A stretch of DNA of 64,000 nt from Coriobacteriaceae bacterium (lineage in GTDB: Bacteria > Actinomycetota > Coriobacteriia > Coriobacteriales > UMGS124), in contig JAHZGC010000007.1 in the NCBI GenBank assembly GCA_019421015.1, positions 23,397 through 87,396 on the forward strand, written 5' to 3'. The notes beneath the pieces were generated by a model. That model saw nothing but the letters and a program-made list of their open reading frames with translations. It ran no database searches and was not told where the DNA came from. The position numbers were made by a program, and so were the translations under genes. Below, one piece after another: positions 16,333 through 50,778 of the stretch. Within the stretch, counting starts at the first letter, position 1. Every line of letters starts with the position of its first letter.

Positions 16333-17979
16333 ATGGAACTCACCCGCAGGAACTTCGTCGCCGGCGCCGCCGCGCTCGGCGGGTCCGCCGCCCTGGCCTC
16401 CGCCACGCTGACCGCCTCGCAGGCCTGCGCCAACGAGGCCGCCGCCCTGCCCGAGGGCACCACCGCCGAGGACTTCGCCAACTCGCTCGTTCCCGTGGAG
16501 CCCATCGCGGACTTCGTGGACGAGAAGAGCTACGACGTCGTGGTGGTCGGTGCCGGCACCGCCGGCGTACCCGCCGTGTGGGGCGCCTTGGAGGAGGGCG
16601 CCACAGTGGCCTGCCTGCAGAAGGAGGTCGCGCCCATGGCCAACGGCAACGGGTCGTCGGGGCTCATCCTCGAGGAGAGCAACGAGATCGGCAAGCTCCA
16701 GTACAAGCAGAACTGGCGCAAGGCCGGCGGCTACCGCATGAACCCCGACCTGCTCGACCTATGGGTGGAGCACTCCGGCGAGACCGCCATGTGGATGATC
16801 GGCAAGGGCCACGAGCTGGGTCTGCCGCCCGCGAGCTCCAAGGCCACGCGCAACGAGTACGACGAGGGCTCCTTCGCCACCGTGGTCATGAACTCGTTCA
16901 GCCCCAAGCCCATCAACCATACCGACATCATGGTGAAGCTGGCCGACGCCGCCGCGGCCGCGGGCGCCGAGTTCTTCTATGAGACCCCCGGCGTGCAGCT
17001 GGTGCAGGACGAGACCGGCGCGGTCACCGGCGTGGTGGCCCAGACCGCCGACGGCTACGTCAAGTTCAACGCCGCCAAGGCCGTCATCGTTGCCGCCGGC
17101 GACTACCAGAACAACGAGAGCCTCGTGCACCGCTACTCGCCCGACGTGGAGCGCTTCGCCCGCAAGCAGTTCAACCGCACGGCCGACGGCATCCTCATGT
17201 GCATGCTCGCCGGTGCCCGCATGGTGCCCGTGAACCATGCCAAGACCATGCACGACATGGACGCCGCCCCCATGTTCATGACCGGCTACCCCTTCATGGC
17301 GCTCAACGAGCGCGGGGAGCGCTTCATGAACGAGGAGATTCCCATGGAGTCGTGGGACCTCTCGCTCCAGTGGAACAAGGACGCCGAGGACCCGGGCCGC
17401 TTCTTCCGCATCTTCGACAACGCCTACCAGGACAAATACGGCGCCCGCACGACGCCCGAGCAGCTCGAGGAGTACATCCCCGGCTTCAAGGAGAACCCCG
17501 TGGGCGTCTACCCGGGCCTCATCGACACCCACCGCGCCGATACCTTGGAGGAGCTGGCCGCCGAGCTGGGTCTTGACCCCGCGGCGCTCACCGCGGCCGT
17601 GGAGCAGTGGAACGAGTACTGCGCCAACGGTGCCGACCTGGGCTTTGGCGTGGCGGCCGAGAAGCTCCAGCCCATCGACACGCCTCCCTACTGGGGCATC
17701 CGCCAGTGGATTCGCTGCAGCGCCATCAACGCGGGCGTGGAGGTCGACGGCTGCTGCCGCGTGCTCGACGCCGCCGGTCAGCCGATCCGCGGCCTGTACT
17801 CGGTGGGCTCGGGCGCGGGCAACATCTGCGGCGGCCTCGAGTGGAACCTCGCCCAGGGCGGCCTGTGCTGCGGTTCGTACATGACCATGGGGCGCTACGC
17901 CGGCATCCATGCCGTGACGGGCGACCTGGTTCCCAGCAAGCCGGCATCCTACGAGGAAATCAAGGCATACTGGGCGTAA
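16333..17979 (+). CDS. Tat-exported FAD-dependent oxidoreductase (fumarate reductase/flavocytochrome-c flavoprotein family)
   Basis: ATG at 16333. Has a Tat signal (LTRRNFVAGAAALG), a dinucleotide-binding motif (YDVVVVGAGTAGVPA), and a C-terminal LYSVGSGAGN...G motif of the FAD_binding_2 family. Confidence 0.85.
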   Translation: MELTRRNFVAGAAALGGSAALASATLTASQACANEAAALPEGTTAEDFANSLVPVEPIADFVDEKSYDVVVVGAGTAGVPAVWGALEEGATVACLQKEVAPMANGNGSSGLILEESNEIGKLQYKQNWRKAGGYRMNPDLLDLWVEHSGETAMWMIGKGHELGLPPASSKATRNEYDEGSFATVVMNSFSPKPINHTDIMVKLADAAAAAGAEFFYETPGVQLVQDETGAVTGVVAQTADGYVKFNAAKAVIVAAGDYQNNESLVHRYSPDVERFARKQFNRTADGILMCMLAGARMVPVNHAKTMHDMDAAPMFMTGYPFMALNERGERFMNEEIPMESWDLSLQWNKDAEDPGRFFRIFDNAYQDKYGARTTPEQLEEYIPGFKENPVGVYPGLIDTHRADTLEELAAELGLDPAALTAAVEQWNEYCANGADLGFGVAAEKLQPIDTPPYWGIRQWIRCSAINAGVEVDGCCRVLDAAGQPIRGLYSVGSGAGNICGGLEWNLAQGGLCCGSYMTMGRYAGIHAVTGDLVPSKPASYEEIKAYWA

Positions 17980-18015
17980 GGGTAAGGACCCCGGTGGAAA
18001 AACCCCTGTGAACGA

Positions 18016-18053
18016 CGGCGGCCCCGCCAGCGAACATGCTGGCGGGGCCGCCG
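18016..18053. terminator. Strong GC hairpin terminator between convergent genes
   Basis: CGGCGGCCCCGCCAGC (18016-18031) pairs with GCTGGCGGGGCCGCCG (18038-18053): a 16-bp perfect stem with a 6-nt loop. Confidence 0.6.
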
Positions 18054-18092
18054 GTGGTTGCGATGCCGCAAGGGCCAAAAAGCCCGGGGCGC

Positions 18093-18686
18093 CTACTGCA
18101 GGGCCTCGATGATCTGCCGGGTGCGGGCCGCCAGGGAGCCACGGCCGTTATGGGCGTCGAAGCTCAAACGCTCCGCCAGGGCGGCGCGGACGGCGGGGTC
18201 GAGGTCCCCCTGGGCAAAGACGAGCAGCGAGGTGAGCATGTCATCGAACTCGGGATCGCCGTGGTAGCACTGCACGGCCTCGTCTACCAGCGGCCACACC
18301 TTGGCCGACCAGGCGGCCGAAGCGCCGCCCAGCACGGTGAAATACCTGAACGCGGCCAGGCGCACCGGACCCGAGACCTCGTCGTAGAGGGACTCCTGGG
18401 CGTCGTCGAAGGCCTTGGCTGCGGCGTCGGGATCCACGGACACCAGCGACGCGAGGGCATCGAGCGCCTCCCAGCGAGTCTGGGCCTCAGGGCGCCCCAC
18501 GGCGCGGACCAGGTCGTCGGCAAAGGGAATCACAGCCAGCGGCACCGCCTTGGCAATGAGGGCAACGGTATGGGCAGAACTCTGCCGCGCCTTGCGGTCG
18601 CGCCCGTTCAGGGCCGTGACCAGCGCCTGGAGCGCAGCAAGGTCCTTGTCCGAAACGGTCAGTTCTACGTCGTCTTCGTGAGCCAT
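18093..18686 (-). CDS. Hypothetical protein, all-alpha (HEAT/ARM-repeat-like)
   Basis: ATG at 18686 (MAHEDDVELTV) is preceded by GAGGAG. The composition is helical-repeat-like and no family motif was recognised. Confidence 0.5.
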   Translation of the reverse strand: MAHEDDVELTVSDKDLAALQALVTALNGRDRKARQSSAHTVALIAKAVPLAVIPFADDLVRAVGRPEAQTRWEALDALASLVSVDPDAAAKAFDDAQESLYDEVSGPVRLAAFRYFTVLGGASAAWSAKVWPLVDEAVQCYHGDPEFDDMLTSLLVFAQGDLDPAVRAALAERLSFDAHNGRGSLAARTRQIIEALQ

Positions 18687-18955
18687 GACGGGCTTCTCCT
18701 CTCGAGGCAAAACTGTGCAAGCCGGTGGATTTTACCAGCCTTGAGAAGAAACGGGCAGCTTGAAGGCGGGATTTGACGGAATCAGCGCGAGGGAGGGGCG
18801 GTGTACGGGCATGCGGCACGCATGGCGGAAAATCATGAATGAGAGATTCGGAAAATAGTGATTGCGATATTCGGAAAATCATGAATGGCCAGCGTATAGG
18901 CTTGGCCGACGCACTATACTCCTTCTTTGTCGAAGCCCGTCCCAAGGAGGCCGCC

Positions 18956-20254
18956 GTGCCAGGAGTCCTACCGCCTCAAGACCAGTACATCCCACGCATC
19001 GTTGACAGCCAAATCAAGAGCTATCTCGAAATCTTCGGCGCAGTCGAAGTTGCGGGAACCAAGTGGTGCGGCAAGACCTGGACAGCCTGCCGCCATGCGC
19101 AGAGCGTAAGCTACGTCGACGAGGCGCTTTCGCTCGCCCGCTCCGATCCGCAGGCGATGCTTACGGGAGCACGCCCCCACGTCATCGACGAATGGCAGAA
19201 GGCCCCTATGGTCTGGAACGCCGTGCGCCATGCCATAGACCTGCAGCGCGGCTTGCGCGGTGCCTGGATTCTCACTGGGTCGGCGACCCCCATCGTAAGG
19301 GACGACATCGAGGCCCAGGCCCTCCACAGTGGGGCGGGGCGCATCGGACGCATCCGCATGCGACCTATGTCGTTGGCAGAATCGGGCGAGTCGAGCGGCG
19401 AAGTGTCGCTGGCAAAGCTGTTCGAGGGCACGTTCGCCCATGCCAAGGTGCCCGGCGACGCCGCCTCCATGGCCGCCTTGGCCTGCCGAGGCGGTTGGCC
19501 CGAAGCGCTCGACCTCACGGCGGCCCAAGCCCAGATTGTCGCACGGGAGTATATCAAGCTCCTGTTGGGCGAGAGCGTCCCACGCCACGGCAAAGACGGA
19601 GAGATGGCGCGGCGGGTGGCCCTCTCGATCGCACGAAACCTTGGACAGGCCGCAACCCACAAGACTTTGCTCGCCGATATCTCTAGCCCGGACGAACCTC
19701 TCATGACGGCCCAGACCCTCTCGTCCTATATTAATCTGCTCATGGACCTGTACTTTGTCGAGGAGGTGCCCGGCTGGGTCCCCGAATGGCGTTCCCCCAA
19801 ACGCCTGGCGGTAAAACCCAAGCGTTACCTGGCCGACCCCTCTCTCGCGGTGGCGCTGCTGGGTATGAACGAACGGTCGCTGCTCGATGACTGGCAGACG
19901 TTTGGCCTCGTTTACGAGAACCTCTGCATGCGTGACCTCATGGTGTATGCCCAGGCCTTGTCGGAATCGAGCGCCACCCCCGTCAGGTACTACCGCGACG
20001 ACAGCGGCCTGGAAGCCGACGCCGTGGTGGAGCTGGCCGACGGCCGCTGGGCGGCGTTCGAGTTCAAGCTCGGCATCGCCAAGGCCGACCAGGGTGTCGC
20101 GTCGCTCAAGCGCATGCGTGCCAAGCTTTTGGCCAACCCGCAGGCCCGCACCCGCGAACCCTCGTTCATGGCGGTGGTCACCGGCACGGGAGAATACGCC
20201 TACCAGGCCGAGGAGGGCATCTACGTCGTGCCCCTTCGCGCGCTGGGGGCGTGA
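18956..20254 (+). CDS. AAA-type ATPase with a DUF4143-like C-terminal domain
   Basis: GTG at 18956 follows AAGGAGG (18944-18950). N-terminus is YIPRIVD..L...L..FGAVEVAGTKWCGKTWTA (Walker A), followed by VIDEWQ (Walker B-like) and the C-terminal pattern of the DUF4143 family. Confidence 0.75.
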   Translation: MPGVLPPQDQYIPRIVDSQIKSYLEIFGAVEVAGTKWCGKTWTACRHAQSVSYVDEALSLARSDPQAMLTGARPHVIDEWQKAPMVWNAVRHAIDLQRGLRGAWILTGSATPIVRDDIEAQALHSGAGRIGRIRMRPMSLAESGESSGEVSLAKLFEGTFAHAKVPGDAASMAALACRGGWPEALDLTAAQAQIVAREYIKLLLGESVPRHGKDGEMARRVALSIARNLGQAATHKTLLADISSPDEPLMTAQTLSSYINLLMDLYFVEEVPGWVPEWRSPKRLAVKPKRYLADPSLAVALLGMNERSLLDDWQTFGLVYENLCMRDLMVYAQALSESSATPVRYYRDDSGLEADAVVELADGRWAAFEFKLGIAKADQGVASLKRMRAKLLANPQARTREPSFMAVVTGTGEYAYQAEEGIYVVPLRALGA

Positions 20255-20631
20255 GGGCAGCATCGTCGCTATCGATTCAGGCACCGAGCATGCTCTGGCA
20301 GTCGGAGCCCAGCCGGGCAATCTACTCATTCCCCGTACATCGCCCACATTTCCTGCCAAGCAAAAACAGCCCATCTACCTGCGCTTTTCCACCATTCCCG
20401 CAGGTAGATGCCCTGGCACAAATTGCCCGCAATGTATGCCCACGCACCTGTGGCGGTTTGCAGGCAGCCGCCCCCACACCGCATCGGCAACCGTATAATC
20501 CCAAGCGTTCCCATCCGCCCTCTGAGCCTTGCAAAAGGGAGCCGCATGGCAGATCGCATCGCACCCAGGTTGCCGGGCTTTTCGCCGGCAGGGTACACAG
20601 CGGGCCAGACCCAAAACCGGGAGGCCCTCTG

Positions 20632-21246
20632 ATGCGCCGCGCAAGCGCCGAAGACGCCGAGCTGGCCATGGACGCCCTGCTGGGCACCCGTACCACCGGC
20701 CGCGACGAGTCCCACGCCGACCAGGACAACAACCCCTACGAACCCACCCCTTACCCGGTACTCGAACGTCTGGCCAACAGCGGCCTTGTGGGCAAGCGCA
20801 ACTTGCTCGTAGACTACGGCTGCGGCAAGGGACGCGTGGGGTTCTACCTGTCCTACCAGTCCCGCTGCCGTACCCTGGGGGTGGAGCGCGACCGGTGGCT
20901 CTACGAGTGCGCGCTGCGCAACCGCGACTCGGCCCACGTCGCCGCCAAGACGGCCTTTACGCTGGCCGACGCCGCGCAGTTCGCGATACCTCCCGAGGCC
21001 GACCGATTCTACCTGTTCAACCCCTTCTCCGCCGCGGTGTTCGAGCAGGTGTTGGGGCAGCTGCGCACCTCCCTGGCAGCCCACCCCCGCAAGGCGCTCC
21101 TGTTCCTGTACTATCCCGACGACTCCTACCTCGCGCCGCTCGAACGTGTGGGATGGCTCGAATCCTGCGACCCCATAGACTGCCGCGACCTGTTTGGGGG
21201 AGAAGACCCCCGAGAGACGATCGTCGTATACCGCACCCGCCCCTGA
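20632..21246 (+). CDS. Class I SAM-dependent methyltransferase
   Basis: ATG at 20632 is preceded by GGGAGG. Motif I is LLVDYGCGKGRVGFYL, with a Rossmann-like pattern downstream. Confidence 0.7.
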   Translation: MRRASAEDAELAMDALLGTRTTGRDESHADQDNNPYEPTPYPVLERLANSGLVGKRNLLVDYGCGKGRVGFYLSYQSRCRTLGVERDRWLYECALRNRDSAHVAAKTAFTLADAAQFAIPPEADRFYLFNPFSAAVFEQVLGQLRTSLAAHPRKALLFLYYPDDSYLAPLERVGWLESCDPIDCRDLFGGEDPRETIVVYRTRP

Positions 21247-21261
21247 CCCTAGGAGGAACCC

Positions 21262-21936
21262 ATGGCCTCTGCCACCCGACGCTTCGACTACGTGCTGCTC
21301 GACTGCGACGGCACCCTGCTCGACACCCTCTCCGACCTGGCCGCTGCCGGCAACCACGTGTGTGCGTTGCACGGGTGGGAGCCCTACGGCCTGGAGGAGT
21401 ACAAGCGCAAGGTGGGCAACGGCCAGCGGGTACTCGCCAGCCGCATCGTGCCGCCGGAGCTCGCCGGCGACGAGGCGCTAGTCGACGAGGTCTACCGGGA
21501 GTTCTGCGCCTACTACGCACTCCACAAGGAAGACCACACCGCGCCCTATCCCGGCATGGTCGCGGCCTTGGAGCGGATGCAGGAGGCAGGGGCGGTGCTC
21601 GGCGTGCTCACCAACAAGGACCAGGCGGCGGCCGAGGCGCTGGTCGCGCGGTACTTCGGCGGCCTTCTCCCCGTGGTGCAGGGCCGGGTCGACGCGATGC
21701 CCGCCAAACCCGAGCCGCCCATGACCCTGGCGCTCATGGAGAAGCTCGGCACCGTGCCAGAGCGCACCCTCATGGTGGGCGATACCGCGGTGGACATCGC
21801 CTGTGGGACCAACGTGGGCATCGCGACCTGCGGGGTGCTCTGGGGCTTCCGCGACCGGGACGAGCTGGTGGCCGCCGGGGCGGACAAGTTGGTGGAGACA
21901 CCAGCGGAGCTGGCAGGGTGGGTGCTGGGGGAATGA
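21262..21936 (+). CDS. HAD-superfamily hydrolase (phosphoglycolate phosphatase-like, subfamily IA)
   Basis: Motif I is LLDCDGTLLDT, motif II is GVLTNK, and motifs III/IV are KP....MVGDT..D. Confidence 0.85.
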   Translation: MASATRRFDYVLLDCDGTLLDTLSDLAAAGNHVCALHGWEPYGLEEYKRKVGNGQRVLASRIVPPELAGDEALVDEVYREFCAYYALHKEDHTAPYPGMVAALERMQEAGAVLGVLTNKDQAAAEALVARYFGGLLPVVQGRVDAMPAKPEPPMTLALMEKLGTVPERTLMVGDTAVDIACGTNVGIATCGVLWGFRDRDELVAAGADKLVETPAELAGWVLGE

Positions 21937-21937
21937 A

Positions 21938-22151
21938 TTGCCAGCGGAACGTCCCTTCGTTGACAAAGAATGACGACCGTGAACGATTGGACAGGGCATT
22001 TAGAACGGGCAGACGTATCTAATGTAAAAATACCCTAGGAAATATATCATTGGTATAAATAAATGCTACCCCGAAGTACCCACGGCGACCTCGGGATGTC
22101 GCTCACAGTCGTTCATTTATGCCAGCTGGATGCCCGTTTCGCTGCAAACGC
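21938..22151. mobile_element. Family B MITE-like element, copy 1 (~214 bp; ~50-nt imperfect terminal inverted repeats; AT-rich core)
   Basis: Left end is TTGCCAGCGGAACG...TTGACAAAGAATGACGACCGTGAACGA. Right end is TCGCTCACAGTCGTTCATTTATGCCAGC...CGTTTCGCTGCAAACGC, its inverted complement. It aligns without gaps with copy 2 and starts 2 nt after the HAD stop codon. Confidence 0.7.
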
Positions 22152-22178
22152 TGTCACAGGCCGAGCTTAAAGATCGCC

Positions 22179-23690
22179 TCACCCCCGCCCATGCACCCAC
22201 TCCACGAGTTCGTCTTTGGTATGCACACCGCACTTGCGGTAGAGGTTCTTGGCATGAGACTGCACGGTACTCAGGGAAAGACCCATCTCGGCGGCGGTCT
22301 TTTGGTAGCTGTACCCGCGCAAAACGCAGCCCATGACCTCGAGCTCGCGCGGCGTCAGGCCGTAGAGGCGAACCCGCTCCTCAGAGACCAGGCCGGTTGG
22401 AACGGATGCCGCCGAAACGTCGGACCCAGGAGATTCTTTGCCATCGGGACACGGCGCGGCCGTCTCGGCACCCCCGCCTCCCCATATGGCACCGCCAAAG
22501 GCCAAAAACACGAATGTTGCCGCAATCAGAAGGAACACCAGCACAAGTAGGAGCGGAACAAACCCCGTAGCCTCGGGCGATCCCACCAGGACAGTCATCC
22601 ACGGAGCGAGCAGCTTGCCACAGAAGACCGGCACGACCTTGCAGATGCAGAACACAAAGCAGAACAGCAGAGCAACCGATAGGGCGCGCTCTCGTGCCAG
22701 GCGCACCAGCAAGATCCAAAGTAGCAGCTCAAAACAGTTAAAAGCCGCCGCCACGAGACCTTCTCCCACAACGAAGTACCGGGGCAAGCCGGCAAGCATC
22801 AGAAGCATGCCGGCGATAGCCACCAGGGCGAGCACGACCCAGGCGACCTTGATAGACGGGGCCCAGTCTTCGGGGCCCTTTCCCCTAACGAGCACAAGCA
22901 TGACGCCCATAAAGCCAAAGGCCACCGCCACATCAACCACACGCACCAACAGGGCAATCCGGGCTTCGAGGCTCACAAAAGCGCCCACGGTGATGCGTCC
23001 CGCAAAGAGGAAGACCGCGATCATGACCACGAGCAGTAGCGGGAGACGCCTGAGACCGCCAAGGGAGTAATCGGGCGTGCGACCCACGGAGGCGCCATCG
23101 GGTCGGCAGAGAAGCCAGGCCACCGCAGAGCCAACGGGAGCAAGCAGGGTAAAGCCGAGGGCAGCCCTCTGCGACGCAAGGTCCGTGATCGGGGCAAGGG
23201 AACCGAACGCATAGCCGATAACCATGACCAGCAAGGCGCTACGCCCATCCATGGCGAGCAACGATGACGCCCAGGCCAGGGTCAGCGCCACGTAACCAAG
23301 GGCCACGGCGGCAGTACCCAGCCCAAATGCAAGCGGTTCGACCCCGCCAAGCCCAGGAGCAAGGGCGAGCAGAAAAGCCCCGAGCGTACCCACGCAGCAG
23401 AGCGCGGCGGGAGCGGCGGAGGGCCTTGCAAACAGGGGCTCGACCCTGCGGCGGAGAAGGACCGCGCCCACGCACAGCACCGCCAATGCCACCAATACGG
23501 CAAGCAGGGTGCCTCGATTAGCCTGGGCCGGATCGGTATAGCCCCCGAGTACCGCCGCGAACTCGAACTGGCGCAAGGTGGGCCAATAAAGCGCAAAGCC
23601 CAGCACCCCCATGATCACCCGTAACCCTGTATGAGCCGTCTCGGCACGCACCGCCGGCGCTCCTCTCCCCCATCTTCCACAAAAGCCCAA
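22179..23690 (-). CDS. Membrane-spanning LuxR-family transcriptional regulator
   Basis: 503 aa with a polytopic N-terminal domain and a C-terminal LTPRELEVMGCVLRGYSYQKTAAEMGLSLSTVQSHAKNLYRKCGVHTKDELV. It is divergent from the cytochrome/flavoprotein pair. Confidence 0.8.
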   Translation of the reverse strand: MGFCGRWGRGAPAVRAETAHTGLRVIMGVLGFALYWPTLRQFEFAAVLGGYTDPAQANRGTLLAVLVALAVLCVGAVLLRRRVEPLFARPSAAPAALCCVGTLGAFLLALAPGLGGVEPLAFGLGTAAVALGYVALTLAWASSLLAMDGRSALLVMVIGYAFGSLAPITDLASQRAALGFTLLAPVGSAVAWLLCRPDGASVGRTPDYSLGGLRRLPLLLVVMIAVFLFAGRITVGAFVSLEARIALLVRVVDVAVAFGFMGVMLVLVRGKGPEDWAPSIKVAWVVLALVAIAGMLLMLAGLPRYFVVGEGLVAAAFNCFELLLWILLVRLARERALSVALLFCFVFCICKVVPVFCGKLLAPWMTVLVGSPEATGFVPLLLVLVFLLIAATFVFLAFGGAIWGGGGAETAAPCPDGKESPGSDVSAASVPTGLVSEERVRLYGLTPRELEVMGCVLRGYSYQKTAAEMGLSLSTVQSHAKNLYRKCGVHTKDELVEWVHGRG

Positions 23691-23919
23691 GGCTACCAGT
23701 CTAAAGGAATGCGACCGCGGTACCTTGGTTGGCGATCACAAAAACCCACGTCAAAGACTCCCCAATTATATGGGAGCCGCCGGATTTTTAAGCCTGCTTG
23801 AGGTTTCACATGTTTCATAGGGCAACCTTTGCCCACCCTCTTGCCAAGATGGGGCCACAGGTGGGCGGCCCTCATGCCACCCGCCGCGCAACAAGCCGTC
23901 ACGACAAGGGGAGGTTTAC

Positions 23920-24456
23920 ATGGCTATGAAGGAGAGGTCCTTTGGGTCCAAGGCGCACCGCACCGTATGCGCCTTTGCCGGGGCAGCGCTGATGGTCGGG
24001 GCCACGCTCGGAGCCGGACTCGGCATCGCCGGAACGCTCGACAGCAACTCAATCGTAAACAAGGACATGGACGTGGTGGCCGCCTACTCGGAGAGCTACT
24101 TTACGGCCGCCGATGACTCGGTCATGGGCGCGCACCGCAACCTTGGCCTCACGTGCATCTCGTGCCACCCGATGTCCGACGGCACCCAACCCGACGCAGT
24201 CGAAAGCGCAAGCGGTGCCCAAGAGACCTGCATGACCACCGGCTGCCACGACGACTGGGACGCTATCGTGGAAGCAACGAGCGACTGCATGGGGACGCCC
24301 ACGGTCTACAACCCCTCGGGCGTGTACAACCCCCACTCCAACCACCGCAGCCCCGCCGACTGCGGCGAGTGCCACAAGATGCACACGGTGCAGACGCTCA
24401 CCTGCGCGCAGTGCCATAAGGTAGATATGCCCGCCGGTTGGGCAGGCTTCTACTAA
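23920..24456 (+). CDS. Membrane-anchored tetraheme cytochrome c (class III / c3-like)
   Basis: Has an N-terminal TM anchor (VCAFAGAALMVGATLGAGLGIAG) and four heme-binding motifs: CISCH, CMTTGCH (the CX4CH form seen in cytochromes c3), CGECH and CAQCH. Confidence 0.8.
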   Translation: MAMKERSFGSKAHRTVCAFAGAALMVGATLGAGLGIAGTLDSNSIVNKDMDVVAAYSESYFTAADDSVMGAHRNLGLTCISCHPMSDGTQPDAVESASGAQETCMTTGCHDDWDAIVEATSDCMGTPTVYNPSGVYNPHSNHRSPADCGECHKMHTVQTLTCAQCHKVDMPAGWAGFY

Positions 24457-24524
24457 TTTGCGGCGTGGCCCCGTTCGCCGTGTCGTCCTTTTCTGACCTC
24501 TACTCCATAAGGAGCGTGTAATCT

Positions 24525-26168
24525 ATGAGCAGCATCAACCAGGCATCTCGCCGCGACTTCATTGCGGGAGCGGCGGCTTTGGCAGGTGCCGGCGTTGCCG
24601 GTGCGGCCGTCGCGGCAGGCATACCCCAAACGGCCGTCGCCACCGAAACGGCCCCCGAGCCCCAGCCCATCGAAGAGACCTACGACTGCGATGTCGTGGT
24701 CTGCGGCTCCGGCACCGCCGGCCTGTGCGGCGCATGGCGGGCCGCCGAACTCGGCGCCAAGGTCATCTTGGTGGAAACCCACGGCGAGGAGGGCGTGGGC
24801 GGCAACTCCCGCTTCGTCGAGGGCATGTCAAGCGGCGGGTGCACCTACGCCGACGGCGTCCTCACGCTGAACGAAGGCCCCGACATCTTCGACTACGGCT
24901 TCACGGTCATCTCCGACTACTGCCACTGCGCCTGCGACCTGCGTCTTCTCCGCAAGTTCGTGACCTGGATGAACCCCATGCTCGACTGGACCCACAACGT
25001 CCAGGGCATCGACTTCCTCGGTCTCGACATCCCGCTGAACAACACCATGATGGCCCCGCCCATCAGCTACAAGCCCAACGAGGACCACAGCATCGGCGGC
25101 GGCCGTATGGCCATCTACACGATGTACGAGGGGTGCAAAAACCTCGGCGTCGAGTTCCTGTTCGACTCCCGCGCCATCGACCTTGTGATGAAGGACGGCG
25201 CGGCCGCAGGCGTGGTCTGCGAGCACCTGGACGGCAGCCGCATGCAGGTCAACGCCAAAGCGGTCATGTTCGCCACGGGCGGCTTCTCGGCCAACGGCGA
25301 GATGGTCGAGAAGTACACCCACTACAGCTACGAGTCACTCATCCCCTACGGCACCTCAGGCAGCCAGGTGGGCGACGCTATCAACATGGGCCTCTCCGTG
25401 GGAGCCGCCCTGCACCACCCCGAGGCACTCATGTTCTGCAGCCCCGTGCTGCCGGGCCACTTCAACAAGAGCGCACTGGTCATCTGTGGCTGCAACCAGG
25501 CTGACACCTGCTTTTTCAATGAGAAGGGCGAGCGCTTCTGCAACGAGGAGTGCATCAAGGACTGGGCCGAGTCAGGCAACACCGGTGCCCTGCAGAAGCA
25601 CATCTTTACGGTCATCGACCAGGACTTCGTTGAGAAGATCCACACCGAGGGCCCGGTGACCAAGCGCACGAACTACTTCAAGGCCAACGAGCCGGTACCC
25701 TACTTCCAAGAAGAGATCGACGAGGCCTTGCTGCGCGAGAACCCCCGCGTCGTGAAGGCCGACACCCTGGAGGAGCTGGCTGAGAAGCTCGGCATGAAGG
25801 ACCCCCAGACCCTGGTAGACAACATCGCCGAGTGGAACAGCTGGTGCGACGAGGGTAAGGACCACGACTTCCTCAAGGCCCCCGAGCTCATGCGCAAGAT
25901 CCAGACGCCGCCCTTCTACGGCTTTAAGACCATCCTGGCGTTCTACACCACGGTGGGTGGCCTAAAATGCGACGAGTTTGCCCGCGTGCTCGACCAGAGC
26001 TACGAGCCCATCCCCGGCCTCTACGCCCTGGGCTCCGACTGCGCCGGCCTCTTTGGCGGCATGTACGACGTGGCCGCTTGCCCCGGCTCCGGCCAGATGT
26101 GGTGCCGCGAGACCGGTTACTGGGCCGGCACCCACGCAGTGGAGGAGTACCTGCCGACGCTGGGGTAA
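24525..26168 (+). CDS. Tat-exported FAD-dependent oxidoreductase (flavocytochrome-c flavoprotein family), partner of the upstream cytochrome
   Basis: Has a Tat signal (ASRRDFIAGAAALAG), a dinucleotide-binding motif (CDVVVCGSGTAGLCGA), and C-terminal LYALGSDCAG. Confidence 0.85.
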   Translation: MSSINQASRRDFIAGAAALAGAGVAGAAVAAGIPQTAVATETAPEPQPIEETYDCDVVVCGSGTAGLCGAWRAAELGAKVILVETHGEEGVGGNSRFVEGMSSGGCTYADGVLTLNEGPDIFDYGFTVISDYCHCACDLRLLRKFVTWMNPMLDWTHNVQGIDFLGLDIPLNNTMMAPPISYKPNEDHSIGGGRMAIYTMYEGCKNLGVEFLFDSRAIDLVMKDGAAAGVVCEHLDGSRMQVNAKAVMFATGGFSANGEMVEKYTHYSYESLIPYGTSGSQVGDAINMGLSVGAALHHPEALMFCSPVLPGHFNKSALVICGCNQADTCFFNEKGERFCNEECIKDWAESGNTGALQKHIFTVIDQDFVEKIHTEGPVTKRTNYFKANEPVPYFQEEIDEALLRENPRVVKADTLEELAEKLGMKDPQTLVDNIAEWNSWCDEGKDHDFLKAPELMRKIQTPPFYGFKTILAFYTTVGGLKCDEFARVLDQSYEPIPGLYALGSDCAGLFGGMYDVAACPGSGQMWCRETGYWAGTHAVEEYLPTLG

Positions 26169-26204
26169 GTTAGCCAGACAATAAGAACAGGCTATGGGAC
26201 CAGT

Positions 26205-26248
26205 CTCGGCTTGCGCGCTTTTGCCTGCAAGCCGGGGCTTCTTTTTTT
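26205..26248 (+). terminator. Rho-independent terminator of the cytochrome/flavoprotein operon
   Basis: CGGCTTGC (26207-26214) pairs with GCAAGCCG (26227-26234), followed by GGGCTTCTTTTTTT. Confidence 0.65.
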
Positions 26249-26567
26249 GACAGGATGCGCGGCAAGAGCGTAAGTGCTGCCACCAGGTGGGGCCGCCAAG
26301 GGCCTGTGGAGGAATAACAGTTTCTTGAAAAGGACCCCTCCCTGGCCGCATGGCGGGGTTGTGCGGGACCGCAGGCGGCCAAAAGGAGGCTGGACGTGAA
26401 GCAGGTGATGCATCGTATCGCTAAGATAGCAGGTAGCAGCCGTGCGGCTTTCAACCCTCCTTCAGGAATCCCGACAGGCCCTCCCGACGTCGCGCACAAC
26501 CCCCATATGCGGCCACCGATTGGGCTCAACGGCGGAATTCAGCCTATTTGTTGAGGGAAATAGATTT

Positions 26568-26778
26568 GTTAGCGAAACGCCCCTTTGTTGGCAAAGAATG
26601 ACGGCCGTGAACGATTGAGTGAAGCGTTTTGAACAAATACACGTATCGAATGCAAAGATGCCTCAGGTAATGCATCATTGTTACAAATAAACGATACCCC
26701 GGGGTGCCTTACCAACCCCGGAGCGTCGTTCACGGTCGTTCATTTTTGCCAGTGGGGCACCCGTTCCGTTGCAAACGC
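26568..26778. mobile_element. Family B MITE-like element, copy 2 (~211 bp)
   Basis: GGCAAAGAATGACGGCCGTGAACGA (26590-26614) is the inverted match of TCGTTCACGGTCGTTCATTTTTGCC (26726-26750). The outer arms are GTTAGCGAAACGCC / CGTTCCGTTGCAAACGC. The AT-rich core contains the hairpin CCGGGGT-N9-ACCCCGG. Confidence 0.7.
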
Positions 26779-26802
26779 CGTCACAGGCCAGCCCGCAGCC
26801 CC

Positions 26803-27615
26803 TTACGCCACCTCGCCGCCCAGCAGCACGCCCACGTTGGGGAGGTTGGCGGCATACTCGGCGCGGGCCTCGTCGCTCGTGGGGCTGGCGGGAACCACGT
26901 CGCGCTCCTCCACACGCACGCTCGCCACGTCGCGCACAAAGTAGCTGGCCGGCGTGGAACCCAGCCACAGTTGGTTGGTACCGCCCACGGACTGCTCCAG
27001 GCGGCTGCCGTTCACGTCAAAGACGATGGGGCAGTAGTGGCTGCGCAGGTAGCTCAGGGGCAGGGCCACCTCGTAGCCGTCGCTCGAGGTAAAGACCACG
27101 GTGTTGGCGGTCTCGCTGGGCTGGGCCATCTCGACCAGGATCATGGCAGAGATGCCCCTGACCAGGGCGTTTGCCGTGGCTCGGCCGTCGGCGGGGTTGC
27201 CCAGGCAGGAGCAGCCCATGACCACCGACTGCACGGCGTCGGTCTGGGCGATCTCCTGCACGGTGGCCGAGAAGCCCCGCTCCACGGCACCCTCGACGGT
27301 GAGGACCCAGTTCTCGGCGGTCTCGGCACCGTTGGTCTCGGAGGCGCGGGCGCCGCACAGGTAGCGCGAGCCCTCGGCAAGGTTGCGGGCGATCTCGTCG
27401 TTGGAGGAGACCTCGTCCTGGACAAAGGAGAACGTTCCCGTGACCTCGGGGACGGTCACGCGGTCGGCTGCGGCCTGCTCGACGGCTGCAGCCTGGACGG
27501 CGGGAGCGGCCACAGCTTGGGAGGCGTCGGCGGCGATCGCGACCCCGGCGACGCCGGCGGTCAGTGCCAGGACCGAGGCAGCCCCGGCGGCAATGGTCTT
27601 AGAAGTAACGCTCAT
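26803..27615 (-). CDS. Secreted molybdopterin-binding oxidoreductase, sulfite-oxidase (SUOX/YedY) fold, Mo-domain only
   Basis: Has a signal peptide (AAGAASVLALTAGVAGVAIAADA) and the pattern NWVLTVEGAV...VVMGCSCLGNP.DG.....LVRGI......A......VVFTSSDGYEVALPL, typical of the Oxidored_molyb domain. It lies 32 nt downstream of the heme-Mo fusion gene. Confidence 0.7.
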   Translation of the reverse strand: MSVTSKTIAAGAASVLALTAGVAGVAIAADASQAVAAPAVQAAAVEQAAADRVTVPEVTGTFSFVQDEVSSNDEIARNLAEGSRYLCGARASETNGAETAENWVLTVEGAVERGFSATVQEIAQTDAVQSVVMGCSCLGNPADGRATANALVRGISAMILVEMAQPSETANTVVFTSSDGYEVALPLSYLRSHYCPIVFDVNGSRLEQSVGGTNQLWLGSTPASYFVRDVASVRVEERDVVPASPTSDEARAEYAANLPNVGVLLGGEVA

Positions 27616-27647
27616 GATACACCGTTCCTCTCGGCGGTCGCAAGGGG

Positions 27648-29246
27648 TTATCGGACGTTGAAGAAGACCTGGTCGGGCTGGTAGCTCACCGCGCCGGACT
27701 CGGTGGTGGCGCGCACCTGCAGCACATAGGCGCCCGGCGCCAGCTGGTCAGGGGTGAAGTACCAGTACACCCAGGCCAGCCGGTCGGAGTCGGAGGTGTC
27801 GAACGCCGTCCAGGTGGCTCCCCTGTCCAGGGAGAACTCCACCGTGGCGATCTTCTCGTCGGTCGCCCAGGCATAGCCCTCAAAGGTGTAGGGCTCCTCG
27901 GCCGAGACGACCTGGCCCTCCTTGAAGTGGGTCACCGCCACGTTGGGGTTGTTGTAGGGCACGACCTCTTCGTCGGAGGTCACGCCGTGGCCGCCGTTGT
28001 GGTCGTTGATGGGGTTGCCGTCGGGCGAGAGCGTCCAACCGTCCCACATCTTGAGCTCCTCGAGCGGGGTGTCCACGACGCTGATCTCGTTGACCCAGCG
28101 GATGGAGGCGGGGATGCCCTGGCCCGGCCAGCAGGTCATGAGCGGGAAGCCGTTCTCCCAGTCCAGATACTCGCCGTTCACCTTGAAGATCAGGTAGCCG
28201 TCGGTCTCCTCATAGCGCGCAAAGTCGCTTGCGCGGCCCCAGCCGTCGGGGGCGTAGCTCATGATGGCGGTGGCGCCGTCCTTGACGCCGCCGGCCTTCT
28301 CGAGCAGCCACGAGATCGGGATGCCCGTGACCTCCATGTTGGCGATGGCCTCGCCGCCGGGCGCGTTCATGATGCACTCCATGGCCACGGTGGTGGTGAC
28401 CAGGGGCGCCTCGTCGATGAGGTCGGTCAGCTTGGCTGTGAAGGGCTGCTCCACCAGGCCGCTGACCGTGACCTCCCAGGTATCGAAGACGTCCATGTCG
28501 AGCTCCTCGCCGGCATAGCCGCGGGCGATGTTCGAGGTGTTGGTCTCGGTGTAGTACCAGCTGGCGTCGAACATGGGGGTCGTGACGTCCTGGCGGTAGC
28601 TGAACTCGCCCTGCACGTCGGCCACCGACCCGATGCCCTGCATGACGTCGTACTTCACGTCGTCCCACAGCTGCATACCCTGGCCGTCGGCCGTGGCGGC
28701 ATGGCAGGTCATGCAGTTGTTCACCACCCCGCTTTTGTTGTGGATGCCGTGGATGGTGTTGCCGAACTCGCCGGGGTCGTCCACGTAGCCGTAGCCGTAG
28801 TCGTGGCAGATGCGGCAGTCGTCCACCGTGGTGGTAGTCCCCAGGCCGTTGTCGAGCTCCAGGTGGAAGAAGTCCATGTTCCTCAGGACCTGGGCCAAGT
28901 CGTCGTGACAGGCGTTGCAGCCGCGGTTGTCGGCGTCGAGGTAGCGCGTGTTGTAGCTCAGGTCGCCGCCGTTCACGTAGTACATCTGGAAGTACGAGGT
29001 GTCGTAGGGCGTGCGCTGGACCTGGGTGCCGTCCTCGAGGGTCGCGACCTCGGGGGCGTACTCCTGCGCGGTCTCCTCCCAGCGCTGCTCCAGGTCTGCC
29101 TGATATTCCTCGCCGGTGGCGGCGTCGCTCTGGAACGCCTGGGCAGCCTGCACCCCGCCCAGCGTGGCCGCGAGCAGCCCGGCTGCCAGGGCGCACCCCG
29201 CAATGGCCTTGTACGCGCGGCCCGTCTTGATCGTCGTGTGGGACAT
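27648..29246 (-). CDS. Fusion protein: N-terminal triheme cytochrome c, SUOX-fold molybdopterin domain, and C-terminal Ig-like Mo-co dimerisation-type domain
   Basis: ATG at 29246 is preceded by CAAGGAGG. Has a signal peptide (AGCALAAGLLAATLGGVQAAQA) and three CxxCH motifs (CNACH, CRICH, CMTCH). These are followed by TWEVTVSGLV...VAMECIMNAPGGEA....VTGIPISWLLEKAG...MSYAPDGW and a C-terminal GYAWATDEKIATVEFSLDRGATW pattern. Confidence 0.7.
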   Translation of the reverse strand: MSHTTIKTGRAYKAIAGCALAAGLLAATLGGVQAAQAFQSDAATGEEYQADLEQRWEETAQEYAPEVATLEDGTQVQRTPYDTSYFQMYYVNGGDLSYNTRYLDADNRGCNACHDDLAQVLRNMDFFHLELDNGLGTTTTVDDCRICHDYGYGYVDDPGEFGNTIHGIHNKSGVVNNCMTCHAATADGQGMQLWDDVKYDVMQGIGSVADVQGEFSYRQDVTTPMFDASWYYTETNTSNIARGYAGEELDMDVFDTWEVTVSGLVEQPFTAKLTDLIDEAPLVTTTVAMECIMNAPGGEAIANMEVTGIPISWLLEKAGGVKDGATAIMSYAPDGWGRASDFARYEETDGYLIFKVNGEYLDWENGFPLMTCWPGQGIPASIRWVNEISVVDTPLEELKMWDGWTLSPDGNPINDHNGGHGVTSDEEVVPYNNPNVAVTHFKEGQVVSAEEPYTFEGYAWATDEKIATVEFSLDRGATWTAFDTSDSDRLAWVYWYFTPDQLAPGAYVLQVRATTESGAVSYQPDQVFFNVR

Positions 29247-29295
29247 GACCCCTCCTTGTAAAATCGCCTCTCTTGCGTGCTTCAGGAGGGAATGT

Positions 29296-29375
29296 ACAAC
29301 TGCGCCCCAACGGCACACCTATGCCCAAAAGCAACCGGATACGCATCGCACCCGCACGCCTTGCGGCCGAGGCCC
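29296..29375. repeat. Degenerate family A repeat copy
   Basis: GATACGCATCGCACCCGCACGCCTTGCGGCCGAGG (29338-29372) matches the family A 3' arm (GTACGCATCGCCCCCGCGTGCCTTGCGAGCCGG). The upstream GGCACACCTATGCC resembles the apical GGCTCACGTACGCC, but the stems are no longer complementary. Confidence 0.4.
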
Positions 29376-29528
29376 GCTTCAGGGGCCAACCAGCCAGGCA
29401 GGGCTGTGGTGGACAGAACCGCGGCTTTCTCGACAGATCCGGGAGTTCGTACCACCCCGGCCAACACCACCCGAGTGGAGCCCAGGACCCAGAAACCCCC
29501 TCGGACTCGCGCTCCCCTCCCCCATCGT

Positions 29529-30458
29529 CTACAGCGTCTGGAGGTCTTCTCCGCCAGGAACGGGCTCGGCAGGGGCCGGGCGGCGGCGGGCGTTGCGGAT
29601 GTCGACCGGCAGGTAGAGGCGCATCATCATGTCGCGCCCCTCGTAGGCAAAGAGCGGCGACTCGAGCACCATGTCGCTGTAGTAGTCGCCCGAGACCGTG
29701 TAGCCGCGCTCGGCAGCCACGTCGAGCAGGCGGCAGAGCCAGTGGTACTCGGCGTGGTCGCCGTTGGGCAGCAGGGTCGAGCCGATCGTGACCGTGAGGT
29801 AGTAGCCCTCGTTCCAGTACTCGTCGTCGGAGCAGAACCCGCGCTCGTCGGTGATGAAGCCGCCCACGGTCATGAACGCGCGGTCTGCCAACGACTCCTG
29901 AGAGATGATGCACCCCACGTTGTGGAAGAGCGCCATGGGCAGCCCCCGATCGACGAACTGCTGCTTGATCTCGCGCAGGGCGATCTCCCAGCGGCGCAGG
30001 CGGGGGTTCTCGGGCGTGGGGCGCGGCTCGTACTGGTAGGGCGTGATAGAAAACCGCGCGATGCGCCGGCGGCGCACCCACTCCAGCGAGATGCGCTCGA
30101 AGACCGGGTTGTTCTCGTAGAGGTTGCACGAGCGCACGAGGCGGTTCACCGAGTGCTTGGCCATCTCGATCTCGAAGGCCTGGCGCTCGAGCTCCTCGGT
30201 CTTGCGCTCCAGCACCTCGCGCATAAGGTCCACGTCGTGGTTCTCGAGCACCCCCTTCATCTCGGCGAGCGAGAAGCCCACGGCCTGCATCTGCTGGATG
30301 GTGTCGAGCACGGGGCACTGCTCGTAGGCGTAGTAGCGGTAGCCGGTGTCGGGGTCTATATAGCGCGGCTCAAGCAGCCCCTTCTGCTCGTAAAGGCGCA
30401 AGGCCTTCTTGCTGACCCCGTTGAGTTGCGCCATCTGCCCCGCAGTCAGCAGCTCCAT
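29529..30458 (-). CDS. MerR-family transcriptional regulator with a C-terminal GyrI-like effector-binding domain (BmrR-type)
   Basis: ATG at 30458 is preceded by GGGAGG. The N-terminal HTH is LTAGQMAQLNGVSKKALRLYEQKGLLEP.YIDP.TGYRYY, followed by a coiled-coil and a ~180-aa C-terminal domain. Confidence 0.85.
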   Translation of the reverse strand: MELLTAGQMAQLNGVSKKALRLYEQKGLLEPRYIDPDTGYRYYAYEQCPVLDTIQQMQAVGFSLAEMKGVLENHDVDLMREVLERKTEELERQAFEIEMAKHSVNRLVRSCNLYENNPVFERISLEWVRRRRIARFSITPYQYEPRPTPENPRLRRWEIALREIKQQFVDRGLPMALFHNVGCIISQESLADRAFMTVGGFITDERGFCSDDEYWNEGYYLTVTIGSTLLPNGDHAEYHWLCRLLDVAAERGYTVSGDYYSDMVLESPLFAYEGRDMMMRLYLPVDIRNARRRPAPAEPVPGGEDLQTL

Positions 30459-30546
30459 AGACGACCTCCCGGACGAATCGGTTCTCGACCTGACTCTCGC
30501 CCTGCAAGTATAGCGTCGCCCACATGCAGGGGCGCAGGTTCGGTGC

Positions 30547-30579
30547 CCTTGACCGTGCCCCAAGGGAACGGTTTAAGGT
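30547..30579 (+). promoter_or_regulatory. Candidate MerR-type promoter/operator (19-nt spacer with internal dyad) facing the AraC-like gene
   Basis: TTGACC (30549-30554), a 19-nt spacer, then TAAGGT (30574-30579). The imperfect dyad is CCTTGACCGTGCCC / GGGAACGGTTTAAGG. It lies in the divergent merR/araC intergenic region. Confidence 0.4.
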
Positions 30580-30636
30580 TCGCTTATGGCAGTCCACAGG
30601 ATTGCCGGGCCGCAAGACAGGCGGAAGGGGAACACC

Positions 30637-30993
30637 ATGGAATCCGAGCAAACCACCTACGAGGACCTTTGCGGAGAAGCCATCGTGGCGTTCGTGCGCG
30701 ACCGCTGCGACAGCGCCAGCCTCGCCAGCGTGGCCGCGCGGTTCTGCTGCCACCCCAACAGCGTCTCGAGGGTGCTCAAGCGCGAGGTGGGGGCCTCGTT
30801 CCAAGAGGTGCTCGTGGCCGCGCGCATGGAACGGGCCGAGAGGCTGTTGCGAGACACAGGGTTGAGCGTCGCCCAGGTGGCCGCGGCCTGCGGTTATGAG
30901 TCGATGACCCACTTCTACCAGGCGTTTAAACGGGAGTTTGGCGTCACGCCCGCCCGCTTTAGGGCCGAAGGCAAGATGGGGCGGGCGGCGTAG
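30637..30993 (+). CDS. AraC/XylS-family HTH protein (DNA-binding domain only, 118 aa)
   Basis: ATG at 30637 is preceded by GGAAGGGG. The two HTH units are LASVAARFCCHPNSVSRVLKRE and VAQVAAACGYESMTHFYQAFKREFGVTPARFR. There is no N-terminal ligand-binding domain. Confidence 0.75.
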   Translation: MESEQTTYEDLCGEAIVAFVRDRCDSASLASVAARFCCHPNSVSRVLKREVGASFQEVLVAARMERAERLLRDTGLSVAQVAAACGYESMTHFYQAFKREFGVTPARFRAEGKMGRAA

Positions 30994-31014
30994 GGGCCCC
31001 TGCTCTACGCACCC

Positions 31015-38078: not shown

Positions 38079-38133
38079 AAAAACGGCGGGGTCGCCAAAG
38101 GCAGACCCGCGCCATCGCATATACAGCCGTGCT

Positions 38134-39132: not shown

Positions 39133-39135
39133 GGC

Positions 39136-39807: not shown

Positions 39808-39810
39808 AGA

Positions 39811-46683: not shown

Positions 46684-46730
46684 AAAACGGCGCGGCCGCT
46701 AAAAGCCGCCGGTACGCCCCCCGCGCGAGG

Positions 46731-49633: not shown

Positions 49634-49655
49634 ACGAATCCCACCCTTCCATAAG

Positions 49656-49870
49656 GCGTTTGCAGAAAAGCCGACCGGCTTGTGGCAAAGATTGACGGGT
49701 ATGAACGACACCTGAGGCCCAGAAGAGGTGCCTGAGGTCCTCATGATAAATCAACGGTGGAATCATCCCTGAATTCGTATCATTGTCGCAACGGTAGTCG
49801 CTGCTCAGAGGCAAAAGCACCGTTCACACCCGTCATTTTTTGCCACAACCGCCCCGTTTCGGTGCAAACG
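49656..49870. mobile_element. Family B MITE-like element, copy 3 (divergent core), inside the reductase operon
   Basis: Left end is GCGTTTGCAGAAAAGCCGACCGGCTTGTGGCAAAGATTGACGGGTATGAACG. Right end is CGTTCACACCCGTCATTTTTTGCCACAACCGCCCCGTTTCGGTGCAAACG, its inverted complement (~55 nt). Confidence 0.6.
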
Positions 49871-49938
49871 GGGCACCGGGCGGCGCAGGCGGCCCAAACC
49901 GACCGCGCCGCCCCAAACACAGCGAGCCAAAACCCGAA

Positions 49939-50559: not shown

Positions 50560-50595
50560 ACGTACGAACCTCCCTTACAGGATTCAATCTATAAA

Positions 50596-50772: not shown

Positions 50773-50778
50773 AGCACG

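Follow-up and report, generated by a model that had tools for sequence, protein, structure and literature searches.

Family B, a palindromic repeat with bipartite inverted ends in gene spacers of a Coriobacteriaceae bacterium

The genomes of Eggerthellaceae hold dozens of reductase clusters that differ between strains and through which drugs and dietary compounds are metabolised; the regulation and exchange of these clusters are poorly understood. The 64-kb stretch of contig JAHZGC010000007.1 from a Coriobacteriaceae bacterium that is analysed here (the window) has a high density of reductase clusters, of the molybdopterin and flavin types, with regulators of the LuxR type, and the homologues of its Fer4 gene carry the source labels Eggerthellaceae or Coriobacteriales. 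Three intergenic spacers of the window hold copies of a palindromic repeat, here called family B, whose long inverted ends are common to all copies and change together. With moderate confidence, we regard family B as an old, low-copy, non-autonomous element that resembles MITEs (miniature transposable elements with inverted repeats) and the enterobacterial repetitive intergenic consensus (ERIC), and that would be co-transcribed into a long hairpin. The family is previously undescribed, though of a known kind, and its membership of the MITEs in the strict sense is only putative. In the literature, no paper was found that links Eggerthellaceae or Coriobacteriia to MITEs.

Three spacers and a common architecture

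Copy 1 occupies a 242-nt spacer between a plus-strand HAD hydrolase gene (21262-21936) and a minus-strand LuxR/GerE regulator gene (stop codon at 22179-22181). As the original prediction stated, it begins 2 nt after a TGA, which is the HAD stop codon (21934-21936, against a first base of the element at 21938). Copy 2 lies 13 nt downstream of the stop codon of a minus-strand Oxidored_molyb gene (26803-26805) and 400 nt from the stop of a flavoreductase gene (26168). Thus, the claim that both copies sit exactly between converging gene ends is accurate for copy 1, whereas for copy 2 it fails on the flavoreductase side. Copy 3 is found inside a minus-strand operon of the dimethyl sulfoxide (DMSO) reductase type, between the Fer4 gene (49939-50559) and a membrane anchor gene (48863-49633). 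It is 65 nt downstream of the Fer4 stop codon (49939-49941) and 21 nt upstream of the anchor start codon (49631-49633), with the ribosome-binding site of the anchor gene just beyond its edge. In a paralogous operon at 38224-43425, the spacers that correspond to those holding copy 3 and two units of another hairpin family, family A, are only 3 nt long, and for this reason the context of copy 3 is insertion-like. In a 72%-identical operon of another species, the Fer4 and DmsC genes overlap. The placement is of the ERIC type, with copy 3 between cistrons and copies 1 and 2 13-16 nt past minus-strand stop codons, and transcription of the elements is predicted.

The three copies align with one another and measure 219-227 bp (Table 1). 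A repeat search of the window matched copy 1 to copy 2 over 146 nt at 75% identity and a further 75 nt at 80%, with a one-base offset. A 25-nt arm motif, allowing up to 3 mismatches, was matched in copies 1 and 2, with 0 matches expected in shuffled sequence, and the outer box CCGTTTCGNTGCAAACG was found at the right end of all three copies. When the window was scanned with position weights for a pair of inverted arms at a distance of 120-230 nt, exactly these three sites were returned, against 0 in 50 shuffled windows. Solo arms were absent from about 250 kb of Eggerthellaceae DNA, where arms always occur as inverted pairs. Alignment and the paired-arm scan thus bear out the positions originally given for the three copies, and the facing sequences that had been quoted for copy 2 are correct (26590-26614 and 26726-26750). 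The extents of 211-215 bp, however, need a correction: copies 1 and 2 stay similar for 12 nt past the right inverted repeat, in a common extension, CYGTCACAGGCC, that takes them to 22162 and 26789.

Each element is made of a left outer box, a spacer of 8-10 nt, a 26-nt inner arm and a core of 111-112 nt, followed by the same modules in inverted order on the right. The outer box, of about 16 nt, is built around (G)CGTTTGCAGCGAAACG, and the 26-nt inner arm follows the consensus TGGCAAAGAWTGACGGNNGTGAACGA. In copies 1 and 2, the right arm is shifted by one base with respect to the left (GAATGA-CGG against -AATGAACGA), while copy 3 and a further copy described below (L119) pair without this shift. 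Predicted RNA folds pair the arms in all three copies and are more stable than those of shuffled sequences (z = -3.2, -4.2 and -6.2).

The cores behave differently from the ends. Those of copies 1 and 2 are 65% identical in a MAFFT alignment, or about 75% without gaps, and have a G+C content of 44-46%, against 61-72% for the window. Copy 3 shares only its ends with copies 1 and 2; its core is unrelated to theirs (about 33% identity in the alignment), has 51% G+C and lacks the inner hairpin. The inner hairpin of copies 1 and 2 is followed, on the minus strand and after a gap of 5-6 nt, by a T-rich run. The changes between the two stems had been called largely compensating, which is correct for one true double change (A-T to G-C); the other sets A.C against G-C and forms a G.U pair on the minus strand only. 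In sum, family B is defined only by its bipartite inverted terminus of about 55 nt, and the core of 110-130 nt is free to vary.

Table 1. Family B copies and their modules, in window positions
Feature	Positions	Strand	Sequence or basis
Copy 1, whole element	21938..22162	+	alignment, repeat search
Copy 1, outer left box	21938..21951	+	TTGCCAGCGGAACG
Copy 1, inner left arm	21961..21986	+	TGACAAAGAATGACGACCGTGAACGA
Copy 1, inner GC hairpin	22069..22096	-	followed by TAGCATTTATTTATACC on the minus strand, weakly terminator-like; no call in the terminator scan
Copy 1, inner right arm	22099..22124	-	reverse complement TGGCATAAATGAACGACTGTGAGCGA
Copy 1, outer right box and 12-nt extension common with copy 2	22134..22162	+	CCGTTTCGCTGCAAACG + CTGTCACAGGCC
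Copy 2, whole element	26563..26789	+	alignment, repeat search
Copy 2, inner left arm	26589..26614	+	TGGCAAAGAATGACGGCCGTGAACGA
Copy 2, inner GC hairpin	26697..26722	-	followed by TATCGTTTATTTGTAAC on the minus strand
Copy 2, inner right arm	26726..26751	-	reverse complement TGGCAAAAATGAACGACCGTGAACGA
Copy 2, outer right box and extension	26761..26789	+	CCGTTCCGTTGCAAACG + CCGTCACAGGCC
Copy 3, whole element	49655..49873	+	alignment, present in strain contigs
Copy 3, inner left arm	49683..49708	+	TGGCAAAGATTGACGGGTATGAACGA
Copy 3, inner right arm	49820..49845	-	reverse complement TGGCAAAAAATGACGGGTGTGAACGG
Copy 3, outer right box	49852..49873	+	perfect 8-bp mini-hairpin CCCCGTTT-CGGTGC-AAACGGGG

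Relatives, conservation and strain differences

Beyond the window, a scan of Joint Genome Institute (JGI) metagenomes with the pattern of both arms returned a single additional copy, L119, which lies about 150 nt upstream of a gene for a multihaem cytochrome. Its ends are those of family B, whereas its core is unrelated and its span is longer by 10 nt. Positions 1-560 of this contig are a low-G+C, RecR-like stretch joined to the high-G+C cytochrome gene, and the contig may be a chimeric assembly. A diverged relative was found between converging genes in another Eggerthellaceae species, at the loci of a 71% Fer4 homologue (L127-L136). Its arms, TGGCCAAAAAGTTCGATCGTGAAGAG and TGGCCAGAATGGTCGATCGTGAAGGG, have changed together; its outer box is related to that of family B, and its core is unrelated, within the same architecture. 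By contrast with the conserved core that had been proposed, similarity between cores is limited to copies 1 and 2, those of copy 3, L119 and the diverged relative being unrelated. A scan of a genome collection with a degenerate single-arm pattern gave 100 chance matches in unrelated phyla, 0 of them with a paired arm, and searches of viral-contig collections and a plasmid BLAST gave nothing meaningful.

Two side observations concern the loci of the diverged relative. L127 differs from L128, L133 and L134 by a 101-nt indel, one end of which coincides with the left terminus of the relative, TGTGTCAAAG (16880-16890), and the junctions of which are GGCCTG and GGGCTG; it could be a deletion adjoining the element or a microhomology deletion. 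In addition, positions 1-1618 of L127 hold an IS21-family insertion (IstA/IstB) inside a LysR gene, in one strain, the end of which has repeated TGGCG.AA..GGCGCC motifs. This end was tried as a parent of family B and rejected, as 1 of 10 half-elements scored above shuffled sequences (the left half of copy 2, through a shared TGTTAGCG).

Arm co-variation was assessed in an alignment of ten instances with 29 arm pairs, which represent four or five independent lineages. Standard pairing is observed in 86% of the arm cells, compared with 76% when partners are shuffled and 32-44% when they are slid; 13 of the 29 pairs have changed on both sides and seven are invariant. With so few lineages, these figures establish that the arms co-evolve, and they do not distinguish a hairpin from two ends that are read by one protein. 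An attempt to infer the RNA strand from G.U versus A.C mismatches in the arms was abandoned, the counts being too few and contradictory.

The sequence of the arms is also kept. Among copy 2, copy 3 and L119, arms are 85-92% identical, while the cores, at 33-43%, are at background level. When orthologous copies from different strains or species are compared, variation tends to be lower in the arms than in the cores: counted as events, 6 of 156 arm positions are variable against 39 of 355 core positions (p = 0.01). Copies 1 and 3 alone show the same trend (1/104 against 17/223, p = 0.016), although the difference for the whole set weakens to p = 0.14 if a 5-nt deletion, found within an arm of L129, is counted base by base. 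The arm-to-arm span is 163-164 nt in the window, in agreement with the constant length originally noted, but not across the family, where spans of 173 and 184 are also found. These three length classes are separated by steps of about 10.5 bp, which is suggestive of a protein-mediated synapsis of both ends as DNA.

A comparison of filled and empty sites between strains had been proposed, and strain polymorphism was indeed found at or beside two of the copies. Copy 1 is present in 11 strain contigs in identical or near-identical form, with 96-100% identity in the core. In L105, however, similarity to the window is 98.5% up to 21937, and the sequence is unrelated from 21938, the first base of copy 1; the 97-nt tail that follows has no match among the compared sequences, and the second junction is beyond the contig. 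Copy 2 is identical in L107 and L108. Of 10 strain contigs, 9 contain copy 3, as do an orthologue with 97% identity (L126) and the assembly GCA_965643355.1, while the strain behind SRR35948574 has no copy 1 at its HAD gene. The contig without copy 3 is L112, which is 99.5% identical to the window as far as the Fer4 stop codon; the place of copy 3 is there taken by two family A units and a further hairpin. The genes past this replaced spacer are about 80% identical. Identity thus drops sharply at L112 position 8949 (49937 in the window), precisely where the Fer4 gene stops, and this indicates an allelic replacement of the distal half of the operon (the anchor gene, a chaperone gene and beyond) between strains.

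The orientation of the core is uniform in the 36 instances found in assemblies, of which 12 are of copy 1, 3 of copy 2, 11 of copy 3 and 10 of the diverged relative; a minor orientation of low frequency could be missed in such a count. Genes from about 17000 to 32000 in the window are found in 2-7 public contigs, compared with 34-45 index blocks for the Fer4 and asparaginase genes, and the region may be specific to certain strains. Contigs also break within the flavoreductase gene, near 25779. To the left of the window, a gene for an Uma2-family endonuclease (186 aa), between a sigma-70 gene and a gene for a 395-aa protein, is present in 5 contigs and missing in 1 (L137 versus L138-L142).

Other repeats were observed near the copies. 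Family A consists of GC-rich hairpin units of about 90 nt, with six units or fragments at 50592-50681, 50684-50773, 12148-12236, 12247-12301, 63614-63685 and 29339-29378; two tandem units lie between the Mo-subunit and Fer4 genes of the operon that holds copy 3. Spacers of related operons in another species contain several stable hairpins, and hairpins in these operon spacers are common in the group. A third palindrome, with 36-nt arms that are 78% complementary and a core of about 100 nt, stands at 26343-26515, between the terminator of the flavoreductase gene and copy 2. It was considered as a distant member of family B, since its arms start with TGGCC and fit TGGC-N14-GTG, yet they are only 42% identical to the arms of family B and this loose pattern occurs 0.8 times per shuffled window, so this assignment was rejected. 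Finally, an 86-nt repeat of 85% identity is found upstream of reductase or regulator genes (38017-38102, 46621-46706 and, inverted, 46430-46488), and may be a shared promoter or operator segment.

Origin and role of the elements

According to published descriptions (PMC11602168, PMC10969869), MITEs are short, about 50-800 bp (PMC11602168), and non-coding, with terminal inverted repeats of at least 10-15 bp and target-site duplications of 2-10 bp. Family B is within this range of sizes and has only short open reading frames (ORFs), none of them kept between copies 1 and 2; its termini, made of 26-nt inner arms and outer boxes, are longer than this minimum for inverted repeats. A small ORF in the core of copy 2 was considered and discarded as not conserved, because its 44 codons are cut to 16 in copy 1. 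The original prediction of a non-autonomous transposon is thus upheld as far as the elements are short, non-coding and dispersed, with long inverted ends and no transposase nearby; neither the ORFs tested in the window nor the genes tabulated for overlapping contigs gave a transposase or recombinase domain. It is not upheld by a target-site duplication, a clean empty site or a parent element.

Under the explanation that we favour, copies would have inserted long ago into short spacers that lie at the 3′ ends of genes or separate the cistrons of respiratory-reductase clusters. The probable agent is a transposase supplied in trans that recognised the arms, and few copies would survive. Each copy would then be transcribed within a neighbouring mRNA, necessarily so for copy 3 if its operon is one transcript, and the paired arms would form a stem of about 26 bp, or at least 40 bp when the outer boxes join. 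For copies 1 and 2, this stem could act as a barrier or protection at the 3′ end, or as a transcription stop for the converging genes. For copy 3, inside an operon, it might be a site of double-strand-RNA processing or of mRNA stability. The repeat and its anatomy, the co-variation of its arms, the strain polymorphism and the insertion-like contexts are observed, whereas we infer the mobilising enzyme, the transcription through the elements and the effect on mRNA.

Several observations weigh against such an origin. Copy number appears low, with 3 copies in 64 kb and one match in the JGI metagenomes; there are 0 copies in the 19 kb flanking the window and 0 in the loci of two other Eggerthellaceae Fer4 homologues. 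No target-site duplication is visible at any window copy, although these are old copies whose exact ends can be placed only to within a few bases. A clean empty site with both flanks joined was not found among the strain contigs compared, nor was an autonomous element with these ends found in the DNA compared (the window, its flanks, the loci of relatives, and the plasmid and viral collections). Moreover, the cores of the subfamilies are unrelated, whereas copies from recent transposition should share them. The slow change of the arms among orthologues is unexpected for a dead selfish element and points to a function in situ, and a hairpin alone leaves the conservation of the arm sequence beyond pairing unexplained. 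Unrelated cores together with arm sequence kept in situ are thus better explained by a continuing sequence-specific role of the arms.

An alternative that the original prediction had already raised is that the core encodes an RNA of about 100 nt or delivers a promoter or terminator to its neighbours. Copies 1 and 2 do have a GC hairpin and a T-rich run on the minus strand just past minus-strand stop codons; at one position of the stem, a G.U or G-C pair is formed only if the minus strand is read, and copy 3, which is internal to an operon, lacks the inner hairpin. Furthermore, the plus strand has sequences similar to an extended -10, TGGTATAAA and TGTTACAAA. Nevertheless, the core is conserved between copies 1 and 2 only, and the unrelated cores of copy 3, L119 and the diverged relative imply that there is no family-wide RNA or signal. 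A search of Rfam 15 gave no match at gathering thresholds for the window or at E <= 1 for the elements, which, with cores that are conserved in copies 1 and 2 alone, speaks against a small RNA. No promoter- or terminator-like site was called inside any copy; in particular, no sigma-70-type site was called, and a portable promoter is not supported. As a terminator, the hairpin is at best weak: its T-rich run comes after a gap of 5-6 nt, the scan did not call it, and it is missing in copy 3. It is also below the quality of the canonical intrinsic terminator that directly follows the flavoreductase stop (26203-26250), which has a long GC stem and a T7 run and from which it follows that U-tract terminators are in use in this genome; the simple scan did not detect this canonical terminator either. 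A portable signal or small-RNA gene is thus unlikely.

A second group of alternatives assigns the arms to a protein. That they are recognition sites of a site-specific recombinase or of another arm-synapsing protein, so that the elements would be switch or exchange points (invertons or module boundaries), is likewise an unlikely explanation. It is considered because one arm consensus accompanies unrelated cores, the arms are kept in situ, spans step by helical turns and strain breakpoints fall at elements. If it were true, reductase expression in gut Eggerthellaceae would be phase-variable or swappable.

The most interesting of these alternatives is that of invertons, although it is slightly less probable than the general proposal. 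In this case, a site-specific invertase with its gene in another part of the genome, comparable to the global invertases of the Mpi type in Bacteroides, would bind the 26-nt arms and cross over at them, and the short core would flip. The orientation-dependent signal would be the minus-strand hairpin and T-rich run in copies 1 and 2, or, in L119, the sequence TTGACA-16-TACACC directed toward the cytochrome gene. One inverted-repeat consensus at several loci with different cores is indeed the pattern of invertase-controlled regions, and the arm length fits the 10-40 nt that are typical of inverton inverted repeats (PMC11892184). In a defined gut community, the median number of invertons per genome was 14 for Actinobacteriota (PMC11892184). 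The retention of arm sequence in situ, the location of L119 in a promoter region and the differences between spans, of about one helical turn, agree with this proposal, although the last argument depends on three length classes. By contrast, the 36 instances in assemblies have one orientation, and a flipping promoter or terminator would have nothing obvious to switch at copies 1 and 2, which are flanked by the 3′ ends of genes on both sides. No recombinase gene was found in the window or in the loci compared, nor a promoter consensus in the window copies, and the extension of the inverted repeat outward into a second box is unusual for invertase sites.

Somewhat less probable again is that the arms are paired operators, that is, a host regulatory or architectural site that is not mobile, in which a DNA-binding protein would occupy both arms on the same face of the helix and loop out the core. 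The invariant positions of the arms (TGGC, CG and GTGAA) are not explained by pairing alone, TGAMCG occurs twice per arm at a distance of 9-10 nt, spans step by about 10.5 bp, and the arms are conserved among orthologues. However, 3 of 5 loci are between converging gene ends and one is inside an operon, so that L119 alone is upstream of a gene, and the core has no promoter. In addition, two-sided changes that keep complementarity would be unnecessary for independent operators.

It is very unlikely that the elements are recombination sites at module boundaries, where strains replace modules such as the 4.4-kb LuxR-cytochrome c-flavoreductase module around which copies 1 and 2 would be direct repeats. 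These two copies do have the same orientation, a common core and the common right extension, and they bracket 22163-26562. Homology stops at the outer edge of copy 1 in L105 and 65 nt from copy 3 in L112, and public assemblies seldom contain the 17-32-kb part of the window (2-7 contigs, compared with 34-45 blocks for other genes of the window). Yet copies 1 and 2 are only about 78% identical, so that they have not recombined recently, and no strain was found in which the module between them is deleted or swapped. The tail of L105 has no match, and assemblies and alignments are expected to break at repeat-bearing spacers in any case.

The last alternative, under which the three loci would be remnants of one duplicated segment including flanking genes, was named at the outset as the outcome that would overturn the mobile element, and it can practically be dismissed: copies 1 and 2 have 12 nt in common past the inverted repeat, but similarity ends within 12 nt of the element and each copy is flanked by gene families unrelated to those at the others (HAD and LuxR for copy 1; flavoreductase and Oxidored_molyb for copy 2; Fer4 and membrane anchor for copy 3). 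Three kinds of known element were likewise rejected. Integron attC sites do not fit, since the ends TTGCCAGCGG, TTTGTTAGCG or CGTTTGCA do not match the R''/R' boxes (RYYYAAC ... GTTRRRY), an integrase is missing and the genes beside the copies do not share one orientation. For elements of the REP/RAYT (repetitive extragenic palindrome and its transposase) and IS200/IS605 (PATE) types, either the ends or the gene content do not fit.

As a palindromic repeat of a familiar kind, family B is of use at present for annotation, for strain typing and as a caution about assembly breaks. Together with at least one other hairpin family in the reductase spacers, it is a candidate for post-transcriptional tuning of subunit ratios and for breakpoints of strain variation. 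It would gain a larger meaning only with proof that a recombinase or a regulator acts on the arms.

Comparison with known systems

Correia elements of Neisseria, also known as NEMIS, are non-coding repeats of 100-160 bp with terminal inverted repeats of about 26 nt; they are intergenic and co-transcribed, and their hairpin is a substrate of RNase III. Family B resembles these elements, which have been reviewed (PMC10969869, PMC3184786), in being short and non-coding, with inverted termini of about 26 nt and in intergenic, probably co-transcribed positions. In contrast, Correia elements exist in hundreds of near-identical copies, have a TA target duplication and share a conserved core with a site for integration host factor (IHF), while family B has few copies, no visible duplication and unrelated cores, and there is no sequence similarity between the two.

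ERIC sequences, or intergenic repeat units (IRU), are imperfect palindromes that occur only in transcribed intergenic regions, including those of operons, with no target duplication and no known transposase. They are conserved across species and have effects on mRNA stability that depend on their orientation. Family B, too, is an imperfect palindrome of similar size in intergenic spacers, one of them inside an operon. Nevertheless, ERIC (PMC3184786) is conserved along the whole unit, whereas family B is conserved at its ends only, with cores at background level; moreover, the two are from different phyla and have no sequence similarity.

The RUP, BOX and SPRITE repeats of Streptococcus pneumoniae are small interspersed repeats with stable RNA folds that are co-transcribed with their neighbours (PMC3049150). 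For RUP, which has many copies, a parent insertion sequence (IS) is recognised, IS630-Spn1, while no parent was found for family B. Repetitive extragenic palindromic (REP) units and bacterial interspersed mosaic elements (BIME), as well as family A, are GC-rich hairpins in intercistronic and 3′ spacers. Family A shares the operon of copy 3 and, in L112, stands in the very spacer of copy 3. However, REP units of 20-40 nt and family A units of about 90 nt are simple hairpins, whereas family B has a large core, unpaired or independently folded, and bipartite ends.

Invertons of the Mpi type, and those detected by PhaseFinder, are similarly short segments with inverted repeats of 10-40 nt, in which one consensus accompanies differing interiors (PMC11892184). 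Family B differs from them in its single orientation in 36 assemblies, in having no invertase nearby and no core promoter, and in its position, mostly at gene 3′ ends. At the level of RNA, the effect proposed here for the paired arms would match those documented for Correia elements, ERIC and the pneumococcal repeats (PMC10969869, PMC3184786, PMC3049150).

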